From the NCBI GenBank assembly GCA_026225555.1, contig JAMFSY010000017.1, positions 3,602-67,601 of the forward strand: DNA of 64,000 nt, in the 5' to 3' direction. Shown in pieces: positions 7,784 through 16,010 of the stretch. Source of the DNA: Candidatus Methylacidiphilales bacterium. Its GTDB lineage: Bacteria; Verrucomicrobiota; Verrucomicrobiia; Methylacidiphilales; UBA1321. Below the pieces are notes generated by a model. It was given only the letters and a program-made list of their open reading frames with translations, was not told the origin of the DNA and did no database searches. Each line of letters opens with the position of its first letter. The first letter of the stretch is position 1. Made by a program: the position numbers and the translations under genes.

Positions 7784-10700
7784 TCAGGCCTTCCGGGAGA
7801 CGGTTCGCAACATGTTTTGCAGGTTTTCCGGCCCCAGGGGCTTGCTTAGATAACCGTCGAAGCCGAGCCCCATGAATCTCTCCCTGTCTCCTTCCAGCGC
7901 TTCCGCGGTCAGCGCGACGATGAAGGGACATTGATCCTCCATCTTCTCCCGCAGTCGCCGCGTGGTTTCCATCCCATCCATCTCAGGCATCTGGATGTCC
8001 ATGAAAATGAGGTCGTAAGTGGCTTTCTCCAGCGCTTCGAGGACCTGCTTGCCGTTGTTGGCCAGGTCGGCGTGATAACCAAGTTTACCGAGCATGAGCA
8101 GGCCCACTTTCTGATTCACGGCATTGTCCTCGGCGAGGAGAATCCGAAGTGGCTTGAGCTGCGCCATGCCCCCGTCAAACCGATCGGCGGGACGGTTCTT
8201 GCGCGAGGTCTTCACGCTCATACCGGTGAGATTCTGCAAAGCGCGGAGCAGGTGTGATTGCTTGATGGGCTTCGGAATCTGCGCCGCAAAAAGTTCGGCG
8301 TCCCCGCCCGTCTCGATGTCCCCGCTCGAGGAAAGAAGGATGAGCGGGACTGGAGAAACCTTGTGAATTTCCCGACCGAGGCAGATTCCACTCATCCCCG
8401 GCATCTGCTTGTCGAGCAGCACGACATCGAAGTTCTGTTTCCCAAGTTTCTCCAGGGCTTCCGCTCCCGAGGAAACGAGAGTCGGGGTCATGCCCCAGGT
8501 AATCAATTGTGTGCCCAGGATTTTCCGGTTCGCATCGTTGTCATCCACCACCAGCACCGCGCATGACTTCAGGAGATTCTGCTCCCCGAGCGAGTCGAGG
8601 CCGCCCTGCACGGACCGTCCCTCCAGCACGATGTTGAAGAAGAAGGTCGATCCCACGCCCGGTTCGCTCTCCACCCACATCGTGCCACGCATTAATTCCG
8701 TCAACCGTTTGCTGATGGCCAGGCCCAGCCCTGTTCCGCCGTAACGGCGCGTGGTTGAAGTATCGACCTGCTGAAAGGACTGGAAAAGTTTCGCCACGCT
8801 CTCCTTGGGAATACCGATACCCGTATCGGTGACCGAGAAGAGGAGATGGAAACCCTTCTCGTCCCGCTTCTGGCATTGGACATGAACGATGACTTCCCCA
8901 CGCTCGGTGAACTTGACCGCGTTGCCGATGAGATTCATCAGGATCTGCCGCAGGCGGATCGCGTCGCCCACCAGATTCATGGGAACTTCCGGCGCGATCA
9001 GATAGGCGGCTTCGAGCTTCTTTTCCCGGATCCGCGCCGCGAAAAGATCGATCGCATCCTCGATACATTGCCGCAGATCGAAGGAGCGCTGCTCGAGATC
9101 CATCTTACCCGATTCGATCTTCGAGAAATCGAGCACGTCGTTGATCACCGACATCAAAGCCTCGCCGCTGGTCTGGATGGTGTGGACGCATTCCCGCTGG
9201 GCCTGGGTCAGACTGGTGTCGGCGAGGATGCTGGTCATCCCAATCACGCCGTTCATGGGCGTCCGAATTTCGTGACTCATGATGGCGAGAAATTCGCTCT
9301 TCGCCTTTTCCGCCGCCTTGGCCACACGGGCCAATTCCTGCTCTTGGGCGAGGGAGGCGAGAAGAAGTTCCTGGCTTTTATGCAGGGCGAGCAGGGCATT
9401 TTTCGACGCGGTGATATCCTGGAAAGTCCCCAGGACCCGTTGCAGCACCCCACCGTAGAACTCGGCCTCGCCCATCGTCCGTATCCAGATCTGGCGCCCC
9501 TTGGCCGTGACGAACTTGACCTCGAGGTCGAACGGCGTGCCGTCCTTGGCGCATGCCCTGACTGCATCCTTCACGATTTCCTGCGATTCCGGGGCATAGA
9601 AACTTAGCGCCTCCTCCACGGTCGGACGATAATCGAGCGGCTTCTCGTGGATGTGATAGACCTCCTCTGTCCAACGGATGGTGCGACTCGGGTATTCGAT
9701 CGTCCACCCGCCCACCTTCGACATTCTTCCCGCCAGACTGAGCAGGAGCTCGTTCTGGCGAAGTTGCTCCTCCGCCAGGCGGCGCTTGGTCACGTCGGTG
9801 AAATTGACGATCACCCCATCGCCGAGCTTGGCCACCCGCGCAAAGAACCACTTGGCACTGGCAATGTGACTGTAGAGAAATTCAAAGGATGTCCCCTCCC
9901 CGCTCTCAGTCACCTTCTTGTAACGTTGGAAGCGTCCATCGGTGAGCGCGGTGGAATCGTGTTCCATCAGGGTCAGGACCCGGCGCTTGCTCAAATCTCC
10001 CTGCGTGAGATCTTCCGCGGCCCGGTTGCAGAAGGTCATCTGGAAATCGACGATTTGTTTCGTCGAATCGCGAATGGCCTGCATAACGAAAAGACCGTTT
10101 GGCGAGCCGTTAATGACATTGCCGAGCAAGGCGCGCGCCTCCAGGACTTCATCCAGCGCGCGGGCGCGCCGCTCCACGGAAGAAAAGCCGAACCAGACCA
10201 GCGGCCCGAGTGTAAGCAGGCTGCCGGCCCCAGCCAGCCAAACCCCGAGGCTGATCTCCCGCACGCCCTGCCAGACGAGCACATCCGGCAGCTTGCTCAG
10301 GAGCTTCCAACGCAACTGGTCCCCGCCTTGAATGGGCATGCGGAGCGGAGGATAATCAATCGCCGGGTTCGCCGAGTCGAGACTTTGGAAGCAATATAGA
10401 TTTCCCTGGTATTCGAAATAACCAGCCGCTTGCGACGCGATCTTGTTCCATAAAGCGGGATCGTCCCGGCGGAGGTTGACCCCTTTCCGATCGGGATAGC
10501 GAAAACCCAATTCCGCATCCGGGGTGTGGCCGTGCAGCCAGAAGCCGTCCGCACTTAAGAGCAGACTTTCCGCCGAGCCCGCACGGTCGGGAATCGTTTG
10601 GCGCCATAGTTGATCGCTTCGATAATTGAGGATGAGCACGGCCCGCGGTTTGCCATCCAGGCCGACAATTTGCCCACTGATGCAAATCACCGGCCTACCG

Positions 10701-11251
10701 GATGCGCCTGCCTTCTCCGCGTTTCCCTGGATGGGTGAGAAGACTACGGCATTCGATGGCGCAGCCAGTGTTTCCCTGAAGTTGGGGTGGAGCGATTCGT
10801 CCCGGAGGCCTTCAGGGCCGATTTCCTCGGGCGGATGTTTATCGTCCTTCCAGGCGTAACGAAAGAGCTCGCGTCCGGAAAGATCCAGCAACTGGACGTG
10901 GTCGTATTGTCCCCGGGCCAGCATCAGTGTGGTCACGGCATTACGCAGGGCGTCGCTCGCCAGAGGCGCATGGGGATTATGCGCCAATTCCTCCTCCGCC
11001 TCACGCTTCAGGGAAAACACGTCATTGACGCGGGCACGCACCCGGACCTCGATAAAGAAGGCATCGCGACTCAGGTCCATCATCTGGTCGCGCGACTGCT
11101 CCTGCACGGCATAGTTCCAAAGGAACCGTTGCGCCGCGTACGTCAGGGCAATTACGAATCCGCAGGTCAAGAGCGCCGCAACGGCCGCCTTGGATGAAGA
11201 TCGCGCCCTTTTTTCCGAGAGAGCCGTCTCCTTCAAGAGCAGGGTCTTCAT
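7784..11251 (-). CDS. Hybrid sensor histidine kinase (periplasmic Cache-like, PAS, HisKA, HATPase_c, 2x REC)
   Basis: TM-periplasmic-TM, PAS-like segments, FLAIMSHEIRTPMNGVIG, NLIGNAVKFT, GGTGLGLAIS, two receivers. Confidence 0.93.
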   Translation of the reverse strand: MKTLLLKETALSEKRARSSSKAAVAALLTCGFVIALTYAAQRFLWNYAVQEQSRDQMMDLSRDAFFIEVRVRARVNDVFSLKREAEEELAHNPHAPLASDALRNAVTTLMLARGQYDHVQLLDLSGRELFRYAWKDDKHPPEEIGPEGLRDESLHPNFRETLAAPSNAVVFSPIQGNAEKAGASGRPVICISGQIVGLDGKPRAVLILNYRSDQLWRQTIPDRAGSAESLLLSADGFWLHGHTPDAELGFRYPDRKGVNLRRDDPALWNKIASQAAGYFEYQGNLYCFQSLDSANPAIDYPPLRMPIQGGDQLRWKLLSKLPDVLVWQGVREISLGVWLAGAGSLLTLGPLVWFGFSSVERRARALDEVLEARALLGNVINGSPNGLFVMQAIRDSTKQIVDFQMTFCNRAAEDLTQGDLSKRRVLTLMEHDSTALTDGRFQRYKKVTESGEGTSFEFLYSHIASAKWFFARVAKLGDGVIVNFTDVTKRRLAEEQLRQNELLLSLAGRMSKVGGWTIEYPSRTIRWTEEVYHIHEKPLDYRPTVEEALSFYAPESQEIVKDAVRACAKDGTPFDLEVKFVTAKGRQIWIRTMGEAEFYGGVLQRVLGTFQDITASKNALLALHKSQELLLASLAQEQELARVAKAAEKAKSEFLAIMSHEIRTPMNGVIGMTSILADTSLTQAQRECVHTIQTSGEALMSVINDVLDFSKIESGKMDLEQRSFDLRQCIEDAIDLFAARIREKKLEAAYLIAPEVPMNLVGDAIRLRQILMNLIGNAVKFTERGEVIVHVQCQKRDEKGFHLLFSVTDTGIGIPKESVAKLFQSFQQVDTSTTRRYGGTGLGLAISKRLTELMRGTMWVESEPGVGSTFFFNIVLEGRSVQGGLDSLGEQNLLKSCAVLVVDDNDANRKILGTQLITWGMTPTLVSSGAEALEKLGKQNFDVVLLDKQMPGMSGICLGREIHKVSPVPLILLSSSGDIETGGDAELFAAQIPKPIKQSHLLRALQNLTGMSVKTSRKNRPADRFDGGMAQLKPLRILLAEDNAVNQKVGLLMLGKLGYHADLANNGKQVLEALEKATYDLIFMDIQMPEMDGMETTRRLREKMEDQCPFIVALTAEALEGDRERFMGLGFDGYLSKPLGPENLQNMLRTVSRKA

Positions 11252-11460: not shown

Positions 11461-11931
11461 CTAGTCTGGAATCGAGTCAAAATCAGGCCGCGCGTGATCG
11501 AAAAGCGCCTCGTGGATCGCCGCCGGATTGGTCTGACGCGCATCAAAATAGACGCTCACCCTCTCAGACTTTGCATGGGTTTCCACCCGCTCGATTCCCT
11601 TCAGATGCTTGAGTGCTTGCTGCAATGACTTTTTATCCTGAAGGTCTTTCCGATGATCGAGCGCCAGATCGACCCGCTGGTGAAAGGCATCCTTTCCACT
11701 ATGGGGATCGGACGGCAGATCCGCGTCCAGGATCTTGGCTTTCTCATCCAAACTCCGGGTGATCTCCGGTTCCGATGGAACGGCCAGGACGTTTTTATCG
11801 GAATAATTTTCGGGATGGCTTAGAAATTCTTCCGCACGCGCCCAATGGTCCTCCGCGGAACCGACGGGCTTGCCATCTTCGATATAGAACTGATATGCCA
11901 GTCTCGCGACTTCTTCGGGCTGTGGCTTCAT
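11461..11931 (-). CDS. DUF2934-like protein with C-terminal HMA-like fold
   Basis: Start moved to ATG 11931 (MKPQPEEVARLAYQFYIEDGKPVGSAEDHWARAE, DUF2934 pattern). C-terminus LKGIERVE...VSVYFD...AAIHEAL. Confidence 0.65.
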   Translation of the reverse strand: MKPQPEEVARLAYQFYIEDGKPVGSAEDHWARAEEFLSHPENYSDKNVLAVPSEPEITRSLDEKAKILDADLPSDPHSGKDAFHQRVDLALDHRKDLQDKKSLQQALKHLKGIERVETHAKSERVSVYFDARQTNPAAIHEALFDHARPDFDSIPD

Positions 11932-12005
11932 GAGGTTAACATGCTCCCTTGTGGATTCGCCACAATCGGAATTCGCCCCCATCCCCTTATCGGGCGGAAT
12001 CTGAA

Positions 12006-12971
12006 TTACCGCGGCGGAGGCATCGTCCCGAGAAGGGCTACCAGGCAGAGCACGGCAACCGCCAATCCAAATTCCAGGAAGACAAAGCCGCGCAGGCGTT
12101 GGAGTAACAGAGAGAAAACCAGTGGTTCTTCCGCGTGGAAAAGCAGGGGAAGCAACCGATATCGATTCCATGAGGCGATGCCCAGCATGACAACGAACAG
12201 AATCAGTTTTAGGTCAAGAACCTGTCCATATTCCGTTGTCACCATCGCGGGAAAGCTGCCGACGATATAACAGGCATTGATGGTCCCCGTGCCGGCCAAA
12301 ACGAAGACCGCGATCAAACTGACTACGGAAAATCTTTCCACGACGGAAATTACGATGGAAGAAGCGACCGGCTCCTTCTCGCGGTGGACCGCGCCTAAAA
12401 ACATCGCGAGGAAAAGTAAGCCGGTGGGCCAGATAGCCGCCGTAAACAAATGCACCGCGTCCGCCCCGATCCGCCAGACAATCGCCGAACCGCCCGCCGA
12501 AGCATGGCCCGTCCACGAAAGAGAAACCAACAAGGCCGTCACCAGAGCCGAGACAATCCCGTCGAGCCATGCCGCCCAAGCTCGGGCCTGCCAAGGTCGC
12601 CGACAAAGCGGCCAGAGCAGGAGGAGAAGTCCCCCCGCCATTCCCGCCCTCCAAAGAAACACCATCCCGAATCTTGTCTGCCCCAGGACGGTGCCCCACA
12701 TTCCCCCGTCGAGAGCTTCCCGCAATGAACTGCCGCTCATCCCGGCGGTCACGGCCCAAAGCAGGGCCATACCCGACAGGATGAGAACGACAAACGCTCC
12801 GGCGAAAAGCGTCTGCAAACGACGGCAAAAGGAGCTTAACTCGCCTCGATCGCCGTCGTTTCCCCGCGTCATCCCGGGCCGCAAAACCAGCCACCGAAAC
12901 GCCATGATGCCCACCAGCATCAAGCCACTGCCGAAATGGAAGGCCCTCGCCCAGATGAGAAGAGCGGTCAT
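12006..12971 (-). CDS. copD: CopD-family copper transport membrane protein
   Basis: Multi-TM; QTRFG, SLSWTGHA, ADAVHL..AAIWPTG, RFS, TEYGQVL.LKL; adjacent to copC. Confidence 0.88.
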   Translation of the reverse strand: MTALLIWARAFHFGSGLMLVGIMAFRWLVLRPGMTRGNDGDRGELSSFCRRLQTLFAGAFVVLILSGMALLWAVTAGMSGSSLREALDGGMWGTVLGQTRFGMVFLWRAGMAGGLLLLLWPLCRRPWQARAWAAWLDGIVSALVTALLVSLSWTGHASAGGSAIVWRIGADAVHLFTAAIWPTGLLFLAMFLGAVHREKEPVASSIVISVVERFSVVSLIAVFVLAGTGTINACYIVGSFPAMVTTEYGQVLDLKLILFVVMLGIASWNRYRLLPLLFHAEEPLVFSLLLQRLRGFVFLEFGLAVAVLCLVALLGTMPPPR

Positions 12972-12983
12972 CGCATTCTCCTT

Positions 12984-13352
12984 TTAGGGCCCGCTCACCT
13001 CGAAGGTAAAGGTGCCCTTCGTATGATGCGAGTCGGTTGCGACCGCGCTCCAGGAGACCTTGTAGATTCCCGGAGCAAGCTTCGGCACCGAGACCGACAT
13101 CAAGGTTGGATGGGCCGGATCGACCTTGACGTCCTGCCGGTCAACCTCCTGCTGCGTGGCATCGAAGATGCGGACCTTGCTGAAGGCCGGTTCCAGTTCC
13201 TCGGTGAACCAGAGCTTCACTACCACCGGCGAAATCTTCACCGTGCTGCCCACGCGAGGATCGGCGTGATCAAGAAAGGCATGGGCCCGGGCGAGCGAAT
13301 TTCCAGCGAGAAACAGGCCCAACGCGATGAGATAGAGAAATGACTTTTTCAT
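12984..13352 (-). CDS. copC: CopC periplasmic copper-binding protein
   Basis: Signal peptide then AHAFL...P, LWFTEELEP, YKVSWSAVATDSHHTKG. Confidence 0.92.
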   Translation of the reverse strand: MKKSFLYLIALGLFLAGNSLARAHAFLDHADPRVGSTVKISPVVVKLWFTEELEPAFSKVRIFDATQQEVDRQDVKVDPAHPTLMSVSVPKLAPGIYKVSWSAVATDSHHTKGTFTFEVSGP

Positions 13353-14293
13353 TAGTTGTTGTCCTTTCCAACCAGGGGATGACCAAAGATTTTAGGGAAG
13401 ATATCGTCGATATAGATTTGCACCTGCACGACAGCGCCGATGTTCGGGCCGGTATGGGAGTTAATCGGGATTTCCGCCTCCACGCCAATCTGAAAGTCGG
13501 GCTGCTCCCACATGAAGCCGGGATTGATCGTCCCGGTTGTGGTTCCGCCCGAGCGATCGACCGGTGTTGTCGACGTGAATTCGACCACCGGGATGAGATC
13601 GCTCAGCGGCTTCGGCAGGCCGATGTCCTCCACGTGTTGCTGAAGATAAGGCAGACTGTACTCCAGGGCAAAACCCAGTTGCAGTGCATCCGAATTGAAT
13701 GAGCCATCGGCATTGGCCTCCTGACCGGGAATCGACATGCCGACCGTGCCGGTCAACGCAAACGGTTTCAGGTACTTCAACTGCTCCGGCAAATCGCCGA
13801 ATCCCTTGCCGAAATAAAGGGTCGGCGTGTAGGTCGTGAACGCATCGACGCCCAACGCCTTGCTGCCGGTATCCCCCAGGTCGGCCTCGCCGCCCAGCGA
13901 CAGGATCCACTCGTGCGAAGCATTCTCCCACAGCTGATACTTGGCGCTGATGGAGACGTTATCGAAACCGTCCTGCGCCGGAGCTCCCGCGCCGCGAGGA
14001 TCGAGATTGATGTAGGTACCGGAAACCCCCAAGGCAAACTTGGGGAAGATTTCCTTGTCGAACTCGCTGCTGACATCGATCTCGCGCGTCTTCGGCGTTC
14101 CATCCCCCGGGCTGGCGGGATTGTTAAATGACGAGATTCCCACTGAAAATTCATCGGTGGCAAAGGGGTCGTCGGTGGTCACGGTGGGCGGGAAGAACCG
14201 GTCTCCCTCGAAGCCATGCGCGGACACGGAATGGGTTGGGGTCAAAGTCGAAAGAATGCAGGCCACTGCACTCCCTATGAATAGAGATTTCAT
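13352..14293 (-). CDS. Secreted, probable outer-membrane beta-barrel protein associated with copCD
   Basis: Signal peptide ending SVSA-HGF, RFFPPTVTTDDPF motif, alternating hydrophobic beta-strands; stop abuts the copC start. Confidence 0.7.
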   Translation of the reverse strand: MKSLFIGSAVACILSTLTPTHSVSAHGFEGDRFFPPTVTTDDPFATDEFSVGISSFNNPASPGDGTPKTREIDVSSEFDKEIFPKFALGVSGTYINLDPRGAGAPAQDGFDNVSISAKYQLWENASHEWILSLGGEADLGDTGSKALGVDAFTTYTPTLYFGKGFGDLPEQLKYLKPFALTGTVGMSIPGQEANADGSFNSDALQLGFALEYSLPYLQQHVEDIGLPKPLSDLIPVVEFTSTTPVDRSGGTTTGTINPGFMWEQPDFQIGVEAEIPINSHTGPNIGAVVQVQIYIDDIFPKIFGHPLVGKDNN

Positions 14294-14404
14294 CTGATAA
14301 ATTCCTCATCTGAAAGGGAAGACACGGCGCAACGGCACGCGCCTTCCCAGGTTTGAAGTAGAGACATCACCGCACGCGGAGGCGCGGCGAAACAGACTGC
14401 GCTT

Positions 14405-14779
14405 TTAGCTCAGCGCGGGACGAGGGGGAGGCGTCGGCGGGGTCTCGGTGCGCTCCGAAAGGGAACGCGAAAACTCGGGATATTCCAGCGGCGAAGACGC
14501 AATCATCTCCACGGTCAGGCCTAGTGGAGGGAAAAATTTTTCGCTCTTTTCCGGCGCGGCCAGCCGGTCATTTTCGTTCTGCTGTTTTTCCGCCAGGGCA
14601 TGGCAGAGGGCGCACGGGTACTTGCCGCTGAGGGTCATGCTCACCGCTTCCGACAGGGGCACGAATTGCGAGTAATCGCGAATCATGTTCACCCACGCCA
14701 CGGCCTGAAGAATGTACCAATGGCCACCACAGGAAAAAACGAAGGCGCCCAATACGATGAGCTGGATCAGGCGCCGCAT
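14405..14779 (-). CDS. DUF2946-like protein (CxxC plus Pro-rich C-terminus)
   Basis: Hydrophobic N-terminus, GGHW..LQ.VAW..M, KYPCALCH, C-terminal ETPPTPPPRPALS; upstream of the copper genes. Confidence 0.7.
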   Translation of the reverse strand: MRRLIQLIVLGAFVFSCGGHWYILQAVAWVNMIRDYSQFVPLSEAVSMTLSGKYPCALCHALAEKQQNENDRLAAPEKSEKFFPPLGLTVEMIASSPLEYPEFSRSLSERTETPPTPPPRPALS

Positions 14780-14897
14780 GGAAGGGATATCGCAAAGCCG
14801 CGCGCAAAAAACAAGAAAACGCGCCGTTCCGCCTAACTTAGAAGAAAGCGAGTTATCACGATGGATTTGCTAATTCCTCCTCGCTCGTCGCCGCGCC

Positions 14898-16010
14898 TTA
14901 TCCGCTCCCCTGCCCCACTGCCGTCGCCACCTTCTCCAAGGCATGCTTTTGTTGCGCAACTGTCCAGGTGTGGCCGATCACGCGGGAGATCAGCGCGATC
15001 CCGCTGCCCAGCGCGGTGTCGAGCAATCGATGCACCGTGACCACCGCCTCGGGCAGCCCCGCAATGGCCACGAGGAACACGATGAACGATGTGATCCAAC
15101 CGGTGAAAAGCGCGTAATTCACTTTTTGAAACGCATAGGCCAGCCATGAGAAGAGCAGCACCAGCGCGATGAGAACGAGCGGCTGCGGACGCAGCAGCAG
15201 CGTCAACAGCGTGGCCACAGTCACCCCGGCCAGCGTCCCCAGCACGCGCGTCAAGCCGCCCACATAAGTCCGATAAAAATCGGGCTTTAACACGAGCAGT
15301 GTCGTCAGCGGCAGCCAGTAGCCGTTCTGCAAATGCAGCAAGCGATACGTCAGCACCGCCAACGCCAAGGTCGCCGCCACGCGCAACGCGTATTGGGCCG
15401 CCGTCGAGTTGAGCTTCGTCAGCGGATCACGCAAATTCAGCTCGCCACGGATGGCCTGTAGCGCCTTGTGGGGATCGACCTGCGCCACGTCCTCGCGAAG
15501 TGGGGCTCCGCTGAACAGATGCCAGAGCATCGCGAAAAGCCCGACCTGGACCACGCCGCCCGCCAAGACCAATCCACCGCGAATTACCCCATTCTCCAGC
15601 GAACCGGGAAAGGCTCCCGCGACCAGCAGCGCGATTCCGCATTGCAGACCGATCCAAGAAATATCGTCGCCGAAAACCACCAGCAAGCCGTAGACGAATC
15701 CCCAGAGGCAAGCCGCAATCGCCTCGCTGGTATCCGAGTAGCCGAGGACCGTTCCCGCGAAGGCGGAGAAGCTGGTGCCCACCACCGCCAGCAGCATGGC
15801 CGCCAAACGGGACCCCTGAATTTTCCGGAATGAGCCAAAGCCGATATTGAGCGCCGCGCCCGCCATGATCATACCGGCGGCGGGCTCGCCCAGCATGACA
15901 CCGCTGAACAGCACAGCGGCAATTGCGGGAATGCAATAGAGCCCCTCGCGCGGCTGGAAGTGCGACCAGTCCAGATGCGCCGTCTCCCGGGCCAGGCTCA
16001 ATTTTTCCAC
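14898..16010 (-). CDS. FUSC-family membrane protein
   Basis: Multi-TM; YALRVAA, GYWLPLTTLLVLKPDF, RVLGTLAG, RLLDTALG; GTG start. Confidence 0.85.
   Translation of the reverse strand: MEKLSLARETAHLDWSHFQPREGLYCIPAIAAVLFSGVMLGEPAAGMIMAGAALNIGFGSFRKIQGSRLAAMLLAVVGTSFSAFAGTVLGYSDTSEAIAACLWGFVYGLLVVFGDDISWIGLQCGIALLVAGAFPGSLENGVIRGGLVLAGGVVQVGLFAMLWHLFSGAPLREDVAQVDPHKALQAIRGELNLRDPLTKLNSTAAQYALRVAATLALAVLTYRLLHLQNGYWLPLTTLLVLKPDFYRTYVGGLTRVLGTLAGVTVATLLTLLLRPQPLVLIALVLLFSWLAYAFQKVNYALFTGWITSFIVFLVAIAGLPEAVVTVHRLLDTALGSGIALISRVIGHTWTVAQQKHALEKVATAVGQGSG

Follow-up and report, generated by a model that had tools for sequence, protein, structure and literature searches.

A family of unnamed small proteins ahead of copper and TonB operons in Verrucomicrobiota, with an anatomy resembling the copper leaders CruR and CutF

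The leader ORF and its operon

The window analysed here is a stretch of 64,000 nucleotides (nt) from a Candidatus Methylacidiphilales bacterium of the phylum Verrucomicrobiota (GenBank assembly GCA_026225555.1, contig JAMFSY010000017.1, positions 3,602 to 67,601 of the forward strand). Its minus strand carries an open reading frame (ORF) of 124 amino acids (aa), hereafter the leader ORF, followed by genes for an outer-membrane-like protein, CopC and CopD. A sequence-only reading had proposed that this ORF is a CruR/CutF-like leader heading a copper-uptake operon. The hydrophobic N-terminus, the CALC motif, the C-terminal PPTPPPR and the 111-nt spacer that it described were all recovered where it had placed them, and the ORF list together with Pfam and NCBIfam matches confirmed the outer-membrane protein gene, copC and copD downstream on the same strand. 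The features of the leader gene and of the genes behind it are as follows.

14405..14779, minus strand: leader gene, with a 124-aa product of an unnamed family (ORF list, homologues and profile matches; no Pfam or NCBIfam family)
14681..14770, minus strand: hydrophobic N-terminal helix, residues ~4-33, after MRR (AlphaFold2 and family conservation)
14603..14614, minus strand: CALC, residues 56-59 (Cys56 and Cys59), within an invariant P-C-x-x-C at the start of helix 57-74
14441..14554, minus strand: linker, residues 76-113, free in sequence and fixed in length (frequency and spacing counts)
14420..14440, minus strand: PPTPPPR, residues 114-120, candidate ribosome-arrest motif (family conservation and likeness to CutF)
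14294..14404, minus strand: leader-to-omp spacer of 111 nt, the next ATG being at 14293
13352..14293, minus strand: gene for a 313-aa outer-membrane-like protein (omp), first after the leader (weak Phenol_MetA_deg match)
12984..13352, minus strand: copC (Pfam CopC, E 1.5e-20; NCBIfam copper_CopC, E 6.6e-23, under the model cut-off)
12006..12971, minus strand: copD (Pfam CopD, E 4.5e-21; NCBIfam copper_CopD, E 5.6e-53)

The product of the leader ORF is MRRLIQLIVLGAFVFSCGGHWYILQAVAWVNMIRDYSQFVPLSEAVSMTLSGKYPCALCHALAEKQQNENDRLAAPEKSEKFFPPLGLTVEMIASSPLEYPEFSRSLSERTETPPTPPPRPALS, which begins MRRLIQLIVLGAFVFSCGG. Its PPTPPPR stands four residues upstream of the TAA stop, the protein ending TPPPRPALS, and its CALC is a candidate Cu(I) site. 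If the ORF acts as a leader in the manner of CruR and CutF, the 313-aa outer-membrane-like protein gene would be the first gene regulated. The copC start shares one base with the stop of that gene, and the NCBIfam score of copD was 180.5 bits, under the copper_CopD cut-off of 195. An ORF at 11461-12171 on the minus strand overlaps the end of copD, matches DUF2934 (E 1.6e-7) and may close the operon; inspection by eye suggested a likeness of its C-terminal part to a heavy-metal-associated fold, which Pfam did not call. The next gene, at 7784-11251 on the minus strand, encodes a large hybrid histidine kinase.

Family size, spread and conservation

A word-indexed search returned 92 close homologues of the leader ORF, 112-173 aa in length and mostly 123-127 aa. 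Those named by their source were all called 'hypothetical protein', which was also the sole name among ten more diverse representatives, and none of the 92 had a precomputed Pfam domain. The ORF itself was assigned to no Pfam or NCBIfam family, even with Pfam matches at E<=1 included. When a profile was searched against 1.84 billion representative proteins, it matched 2,818 clusters (50% identity) at E<=0.001 and 1,734 at E<=1e-10. Family members were found in 44 of 201 Verrucomicrobiota genomes and in 34 of 104 genera; each such genome had between one and three copies, the window's own genome a single one. The leader ORF is a genuine gene, and the verrucomicrobial family to which it belongs is large and unannotated.

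We aligned 88 diverse members that were 25-68% identical to the leader ORF. Seven positions were invariant (W29, M32, G52, C56, C59, P114 and P119), and ten more were conserved in at least 90% of the members (G18, W21, L24, Q25, A28, A45, T49, P55, P117 and P118). The N-terminal helix holds a nearly invariant GG-x-W-x-x-LQ-x-x-AW-x-x-M, and none of the 241 family sequences checked lacked a CxxC, C56 and C59 being invariant in both family alignments; the P-C-x-x-C often takes the form H-P-C-x-L-C. Conservation along the protein, expressed as the mean frequency of the top residue, was distributed as follows.

Residues 18-36: 0.68
Residues 37-63: 0.59
Residues 76-111 (linker): 0.23, without gaps
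Residues 112-120 (PPxPPPR): 0.74

The distance from the second Cys to PPP was 58 residues in most members (57 in the leader ORF), with an interquartile range of 58-60 computed on cluster representatives at <=50% identity, and about 45 residues separate the end of the conserved module (~residue 75) from PPP. PPP[RKQL] lay within the last 16 aa of 90 of the 92 close members and of 129 of 149 distant ones, R being usual and K, Q or L rare. Between one and ten residues separated the proline motif from the stop, with modes at 2 and 4. More distant members, from Chthoniobacterales and other groups, end in PPTPVPI or PxPPPN tails that likewise adjoin the stop. We also considered VFSC as a lipoprotein site and rejected this reading because its Cys is not conserved in distant members.

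AlphaFold2, run with the 88-sequence alignment, placed helices at residues 2-36, 42-51 and 57-74, with a mean predicted local distance difference test score (pLDDT) of 87 and a predicted template modelling score (pTM) of 0.48. Helix 2-36 was modelled at pLDDT >90 and residues 111-120 at 92, the CxxC sat at the N-terminus of the third helix, and the C-terminal 50 residues had no secondary structure. A Foldseek search of this model against the PDB gave no match under E = 3.6.

Gene neighbourhoods

In the neighbourhood survey across Verrucomicrobiota, mostly copper and TonB-related genes follow family members, and the neighbourhoods reported for DUF2946 hold the same kinds of partners (PMC9426467). 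The order leader-omp-CopC-CopD occurred in 60 of the 104 loci with classified downstream genes, a set biased toward close relatives by its pattern-based retrieval. A survey of the phylum with less bias covered 21 leaders in 20 loci; here a TonB-dependent receptor gene stood first downstream more often than any other (verified by Pfam at L065, L070 and L079), and two further receptors were verified in the genome-contig set (L007 and L019). The label of a 'TonB-receptor-free' operon thus holds for the window and fails for the family, in which, by this survey, such a receptor is the commonest first downstream gene. One receptor locus has PepSY_TM (E 7e-64) next in line, reproducing the cruR operon. 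Other downstream partners were CusF-like proteins, SCO1/SenC with cytochrome c, a TonB C-terminal-domain protein, a YtkA-like protein, and a CusB-like adaptor with a heavy-metal-binding domain behind an outer-membrane protein of Phenol_MetA_deg type; FGE-sulfatase-domain proteins and an extracytoplasmic function (ECF) sigma factor were also found, as was a module combining pilin-like N_methyl with PEP-CTERM proteins. The gap from the leader to the next gene was usually tens to ~200 nt, with a few shorter or longer, and the later genes overlapped or nearly abutted. The first position of the leader was judged from upstream sequence in ten loci.

Several loci extend this picture. Small genomes (2.3-2.5 Mb) of the same order carry two family members each, a PPPK-tailed leader ~200 nt upstream of an ECF sigma-70 gene (L039, L052 and L078) and a second leader ~90 nt upstream of a TonB C-terminal-domain gene (L044, L067 and L071); a leader before a sigma factor or before TonB itself would widen the range controlled by such switches. 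At L063 (G123:C6, ~72968-74336), two leader paralogues stand in tandem ~500 nt apart, followed by cytochrome c, SCO1/SenC and TonB-dependent receptor genes, and a third copy lies 27 kb off on the same contig (G123:C6:45484-45876).

Distant members with a tail of PPTPVPI type head a recurring module (L012, L014, L015, L016, L018, L025, L146, L154, L155 and L160) of a pilin-like N_methyl/DUF1559 protein and two or three PEP-CTERM proteins, the latter with AGHVYGGI or HQH motifs near the N-terminus; at L012 an 803-aa spermidine-synthase-like membrane protein is added. At L020-L023, leaders with PxPPPN or PEPPPK tails stand 160-400 nt upstream of genes for proteins of ~600-626 aa; at L021 Pfam identifies an FGE-sulfatase domain in this protein (E 4.5e-30), which the other three match by BLAST.

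Spacer and hairpins

Folding confirmed the GC stem that had been noted at 14316-14348, together with the short U run behind it (UUUC) and the position of GAGGA outside the stem. A second hairpin, at 14367-14390, was absent from the earlier description.

14367..14390, minus strand: hairpin 1, a 9-bp GC stem with a 6-nt loop, from 15 nt past the stop (folding and orthologues)
14316..14348, minus strand: hairpin 2, 14 pairs with one bulge, then UUUC (folding and orthologues)
14303..14307, minus strand: GAGGA, the outer-membrane protein gene's ribosome-binding site, 9 nt upstream of its ATG (sequence)

Hairpin 2 is the dominant predicted hairpin and ends 8 nt upstream of GAGGA. The window spacer folded better than its dinucleotide shuffles (z = -2.9; range over ten tested spacers, -1.5 to -4.3). 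Because the ORF has homologues and invariant motifs and its spacer folds better than shuffled sequence, we do not regard these leader features as products of chance. Across 42 unique orthologous loci the median spacer was 108 nt, and nearly all 42 spacers shared one layout, in which hairpin 1 begins ~15-20 nt past the stop, a pyrimidine-rich linker joins it to hairpin 2, and GAGGA comes 4-25 nt later. GAGGA was conserved in eight of a first set of ten orthologues.

The stem sequences vary by lineage, and the apex of hairpin 2 falls into two unrelated classes, GYGCCGUUGYGCCGCG and CCGGAAUnnCCGG. For 20 sequences of the first class, RNAalifold gave nine consensus pairs, three showing compensatory changes. 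No consensus emerged when it was given MAFFT alignments of entire spacers or of the full set of hairpin-2 sequences, since the two classes do not align, and formal covariation support is therefore modest. Spacer identity was 0.6-0.8, against 0.3-0.55 at four-fold sites; we give this difference little weight because global alignment inflates the spacer figure.

Two roles for the hairpins were considered and rejected. A pattern scan did not call hairpin 2 as an intrinsic terminator, and its U tract is missing in most orthologues. A CutF-type hairpin over the ribosome-binding site was seen in none of the ten first-set orthologues. No sigma-70-like promoter match was found in the spacer by pattern scan, and a search of positions 13900-15000 against Rfam returned nothing at E<=1. 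In a small 5-bp hairpin at 14399-14416 on the minus strand (GCGCUGAGCUAAAAGCGC), the loop holds the TAA stop and a U-rich stretch comes behind; the scan listed this hairpin as terminator-like.

Three metagenomic loci have longer spacers (L120, 372 nt; L130, 280 nt; L134, 302 nt). The insertion at L120 has terminal inverted repeats (AGGCTGTCCGAGAAATAGGCG ... CGCCTATTTCTCGGACAGCCT) and the look of a miniature mobile element, and those at L130 and L134 share another element. In all three loci, the hairpin module keeps its place beside the downstream start.

Upstream region, transcription and predicted RNA pairing

Two features lie upstream of the leader.

14898-16010, minus strand: gene for an FUSC_2-type membrane protein, followed by a 118-nt gap to the leader ORF (ORF list and domain search)
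14832..14843, minus strand: TTCTAAGTTAGG, a possible -10-like element of the operon promoter, ~55 nt before the leader ATG (by eye)

A motif resembling (C)TACTAA/CTAAGT recurs by eye upstream of the leader in orthologues, and the leader ATG had no Shine-Dalgarno sequence in any of the ten orthologues checked. Taken together, the missing Shine-Dalgarno sequence and the upstream element fit a weakly translated first cistron. Only two runs, both of root-nodule metagenome DNA, contained the window itself. One cultured-type relative within the order has a family member before tonB; its RNA sequencing contigs, from four runs in four studies, span leader, spacer and tonB unbroken and end between the leader 5' end and ~170 nt upstream. 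These contigs show co-transcription of leader and tonB only, contig depth being blind to attenuation. The window's genome encodes two Rho-type proteins and one elongation factor P (EF-P).

We then considered the RNA around GAGGA and at the end of the ORF. The predicted unpaired probability of GAGGA in the window was 0.43-0.49 with or without a ribosome on the proline codons, and its pairing probability with these codons was 0.17. Elsewhere GAGGA was predicted to pair with the PPPR codons (L002, p 0.85; L008, p 1.0) or with the first PP codons (L004, p 0.91). The position of its partner ranged from -12 to -84 nt from the stop and, outside these three loci, lay 55-84 nt upstream. Pairing of the proline codons with the ribosome-binding site as an anti-Shine-Dalgarno switch is thus unsupported for the window, the register being unconserved and the pairing weak there. 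Over the last 75 nt of the ORF, a C-rich, G-poor composition was present in nine of the ten first-set loci (C 0.36-0.49, G 0.17-0.24), the exception being L011 (C 0.37, G 0.32); the window had C 0.45 and G 0.24.

Relation to DUF2946, CutF, CruR and other arrest peptides

The proposed filing under DUF2946 did not survive. A hidden Markov model (HMM) search with the DUF2946 model, PF11162, gave no match to the ORF; PF11162 was absent among the matches of 25 family members at E<=10 (its gathering score is 23.7 bits), and no PF11162 match touched the leader ORF when the whole genome was searched in six frames at E<=10. When family alignments were compared with DUF2946 by hhalign, the probability was 0.7% against eight DUF2946 sequences and, for the 88-sequence alignment, 3.6% against 28, covering 13 columns around C-x-L-C only. 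The DUF2946 set used was narrow (Pontiella-type), and the probabilities cover that type, very remote homology lying outside their reach. 'CruR/CutF-like' therefore stands for the anatomy and the copper/TonB context and falls for membership of DUF2946 by HMM or hhalign. The first interpretation was right in kind and wrong in filing, since DUF2946 membership fails every sequence test applied here. In the absence of a sequence match, the family is treated as an analogue of DUF2946, either convergent or diverged beyond detection.

True DUF2946 genes were rare, occurring in two to three of 121 genomes of the phylum; they were of Pontiella type, each with CxxC, 45 residues and RAPP. Two bona fide examples with this CxxC-45 residues-RAPP arrangement lie in Pontiella-type genomes at L028 (G104:C10:377212-377493) and L030, so both leader designs exist in the wider Planctomycetes-Verrucomicrobia-Chlamydiae group; at L028 the gene is followed by one for a 455-aa His-rich outer-membrane-like protein. 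In the accessible part of the table of Roy et al., which comprises more than 2,000 DUF2946 proteins, there were no Verrucomicrobia, one Kiritimatiella entry and two Planctomycetia entries, and the accessible portions of the supplementary text of two key CruR/CutF papers held no verrucomicrobial entries.

CutF is the DUF2946 protein of the Rhodobacter capsulatus cutFOG operon (PMC9973294, PMC8456105, bioRxiv 10.1101/2025.02.05.636593). It has a Sec signal, a CxxxC and a C-terminal P109-EPEGPPPRL-118; mutation of PPP to PAP abolishes regulation, and stalling, in which EF-P is involved, opens up a stem-loop that otherwise conceals the cutO ribosome-binding site. Like CutF, the leader ORF is small, stands first in a copper operon and has a hydrophobic N-terminus that may be an export or membrane segment, a Cys pair and the identical PPPR tetrapeptide near its stop (GPPPRL in CutF, TPPPRPALS here), PPP being a strong EF-P-dependent pause site and the window's genome having an EF-P gene. 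'PPPRP instead of RAPP' is correct in that the motif is not RAPP and understates the likeness in that CutF itself ends GPPPRL. Unlike CutF, the leader ORF has a CxxC rather than a CxxxC, shows no detectable sequence homology, and carries a long, highly conserved N-terminal helix without a conserved cleavage or lipobox site. Its spacer is ~110 nt with hairpins that leave the ribosome-binding site free, whereas the cutF stem-loop covers it, and its cargo is uptake (CopCD) rather than detoxification (CutO).

CruR (Bp2923; cruR-bfrG-bp2921 operon) is the DUF2946 protein of Bordetella pertussis, with CXXC, 45 aa and RAPP (PMC9426467). Its gene precedes those for a TonB-dependent receptor and PepSY_TM, with a 162-nt GC-rich intergenic region; copper relieves the arrest and Rho then terminates transcription, a 'C>G bubble' having been mapped as the rut region of cruR, and more than 95% of DUF2946 members have an export signal (PMC9426467). 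Here too genes for copper uptake are preceded by an upstream ORF that has a CXXC and, at a distance that is conserved though not equal to that of CruR, a C-terminal proline motif, with a C-rich, G-poor end like that of the mapped cruR rut region and a long, GC-rich, structured intergenic region (111 nt against 162 nt in cruR), and family relatives head TonB-dependent receptor and PepSY_TM operons of the same make-up. The leader ORF differs in lying outside PF11162, in its PPxPPPR against RAPP, in a Cys-to-Pro spacing of 58 residues against 45, and in an N-terminal half that is much more conserved and predicted to be structured, whereas CruR is predicted to be poorly structured. CruR is Rho-dependent; for the leader family a role of Rho is only proposed by analogy.

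The general design of the leader ORF also recalls peptides with RAPP- or RGPP-type motifs and SecM. SecM, ApdA, ApdP, MifM and VemP are arrest peptides and nascent-chain sensors; what they monitor is protein export or insertion, and Sec or YidC components are under their control. The leader ORF would share with these types an N-terminal targeting segment, a spacer of about tunnel length, an arrest motif beside the stop and cis control of the downstream gene; it differs in its metal-homeostasis context, in having a polyproline run as its motif and in that its arrest is predicted only.

Interpretation and alternatives

On balance, we lean towards the ORF being an analogue of CruR and CutF, an arrest-peptide leader that would sense copper and control omp-copC-copD in cis. 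Its likeness to such leaders is well supported by anatomy and gene context, stalling, cis action and the copper response being predicted. In the mechanism we propose, translation of the leader itself would set how strongly the omp, copC and copD genes are expressed. The ribosome would pause on PPP, PPPR being the tetrapeptide of CutF stalling. With Pro119 at the peptidyl-transferase centre, the 36-residue linker and the motif would roughly fill the exit tunnel, and the Cys module, which ends at ~residue 75, would stand just outside it. Copper binding to this module, or its folding, would alter how strongly the nascent chain is pulled and, through this, how long the pause lasts. As long as copper is absent, the ribosome held there would cover the C-rich, G-poor end of the ORF and transcription would run through the two-hairpin spacer; with copper, the pause would be relieved and Rho would stop transcription before the next gene. 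We favour this CruR logic of copper relief and Rho-type polarity for the window's uptake operon with low confidence. The sign of the response, which is probably opposite to that of CutF because the cargo is for uptake and not detoxification, and the Rho step are the least certain parts of the mechanism.

A number of results weigh against this interpretation. DUF2946 homology is undetectable, and the mechanism is carried over purely by analogy. Conservation of the N-terminal 75 residues far exceeds that of typical leader peptides and, together with the confident AlphaFold2 model (pLDDT 87), would also fit a stable functional protein. Masking the proline codons leaves the predicted accessibility of GAGGA in the window unchanged, hairpin 2 lacks a conserved U tract and neither hairpin hides the ribosome-binding site. 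Much of the C-rich character of the ORF end is a by-product of the proline codons. The insertions at L120, L130 and L134 place 170-270 nt of structured sequence right after the stop, so that tight coupling of the distance from stop to hairpin is not required.

The main rival is a stable single-pass membrane protein, copper-binding or thiol-redox active, that would act in trans with the neighbouring copper/TonB system, for example as a chaperone or sensor partner; its PPxPPPR tail would then be a structural or protein-interaction element and no arrest signal. We regard this as a serious but unlikely alternative. It would account for the strong conservation of the N-terminal 75 residues, among which W29, M32, G52, C56 and C59 are invariant in the 88 members, for the confident three-helix model with its pLDDT of 92 over residues 111-120, and for the three insertion loci, where the hairpins stay with the downstream gene and not with the leader stop. 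It fits less well with downstream partners that are too varied for one fixed protein partner, with a linker of fixed length but unconstrained sequence, a combination unusual in a folded domain, and with a proline motif that is always <=10 residues from the stop. The surveyed leaders, moreover, always have a spacer and never overlap the next gene, unlike the other operon genes, and the model has a pTM of only 0.48 and no known fold that it matches.

The sensing could also be as we propose and the output translational, as in CutF, with a ribosome paused on the proline codons freeing the ribosome-binding site. GAGGA is predicted to pair with proline codons in the L002, L008 and L004 ensembles, seven of ten orthologues have the site mostly paired in such predictions, and behind hairpin 1 all ten carry a pyrimidine-rich stretch of CUUC type. 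We nevertheless consider this variant improbable, since the partner position shifts between loci (-12 to -84 nt), the window shows the weak pairing (0.17) and unchanged accessibility (0.43-0.49, masked or not) given above, long-range pairing with a C-rich region is expected from composition, and a spacer of ~110 nt exceeds the reach of the helicase of a paused ribosome. Very improbable, in our view, is an arrest-type or simple leader that is blind to copper, such as an insertion or secretion monitor in the style of SecM or MifM, a CxxC redox sensor or a sensor of another metal. Some members do head N_methyl and PEP-CTERM, FGE-sulfatase-domain or ECF sigma factor operons, and some DUF2946-type clusters have been proposed in the literature as nickel or cobalt sensors; yet the operon in the window and most classified loci carry CopC/CopD, CusF, SCO1, CusB with a heavy-metal-binding domain, or TonB-dependent receptor/PepSY_TM cargo like that of the copper-regulated cruR operon, and an invariant P-C-x-x-C that frequently reads H-P-C-x-L-C is typical of Cu(I)-type motifs.

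Significance

To our knowledge, copper-sensing nascent-chain switches are known from two studied proteins only, both of the DUF2946 family and both from Proteobacteria. A copper-operon leader built like CruR or CutF is of a known kind; what is new here is a large unnamed and possibly convergent leader family. We advance tentatively, as a possibility short of an even chance, that it is a second, independently evolved family of metal-sensing arrest leaders, a verrucomicrobial counterpart of DUF2946 that would have converged on a helix, a CxxC, a tunnel-length ruler and PPPR, with a sensing module that is unusually well conserved and probably structured, and that would control CopCD, TonB-dependent receptors, TonB and an ECF sigma factor. 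If the proposal is true, the switch design would have arisen in a second lineage, or diverged there past recognition, and the CxxC, the fixed ruler and PPPR near the stop would be its functional core rather than a matter of family history. About 2,800 clusters now called 'hypothetical protein' would gain a name. A conserved and confidently modelled sensor module could serve the study of how metal binding outside the ribosome changes pausing within it. The reach of the finding would include copper regulation in Verrucomicrobia, among them copper-dependent methanotrophs of Methylacidiphilum type, where the same type of leader stands before tonB and before an ECF sigma factor gene.

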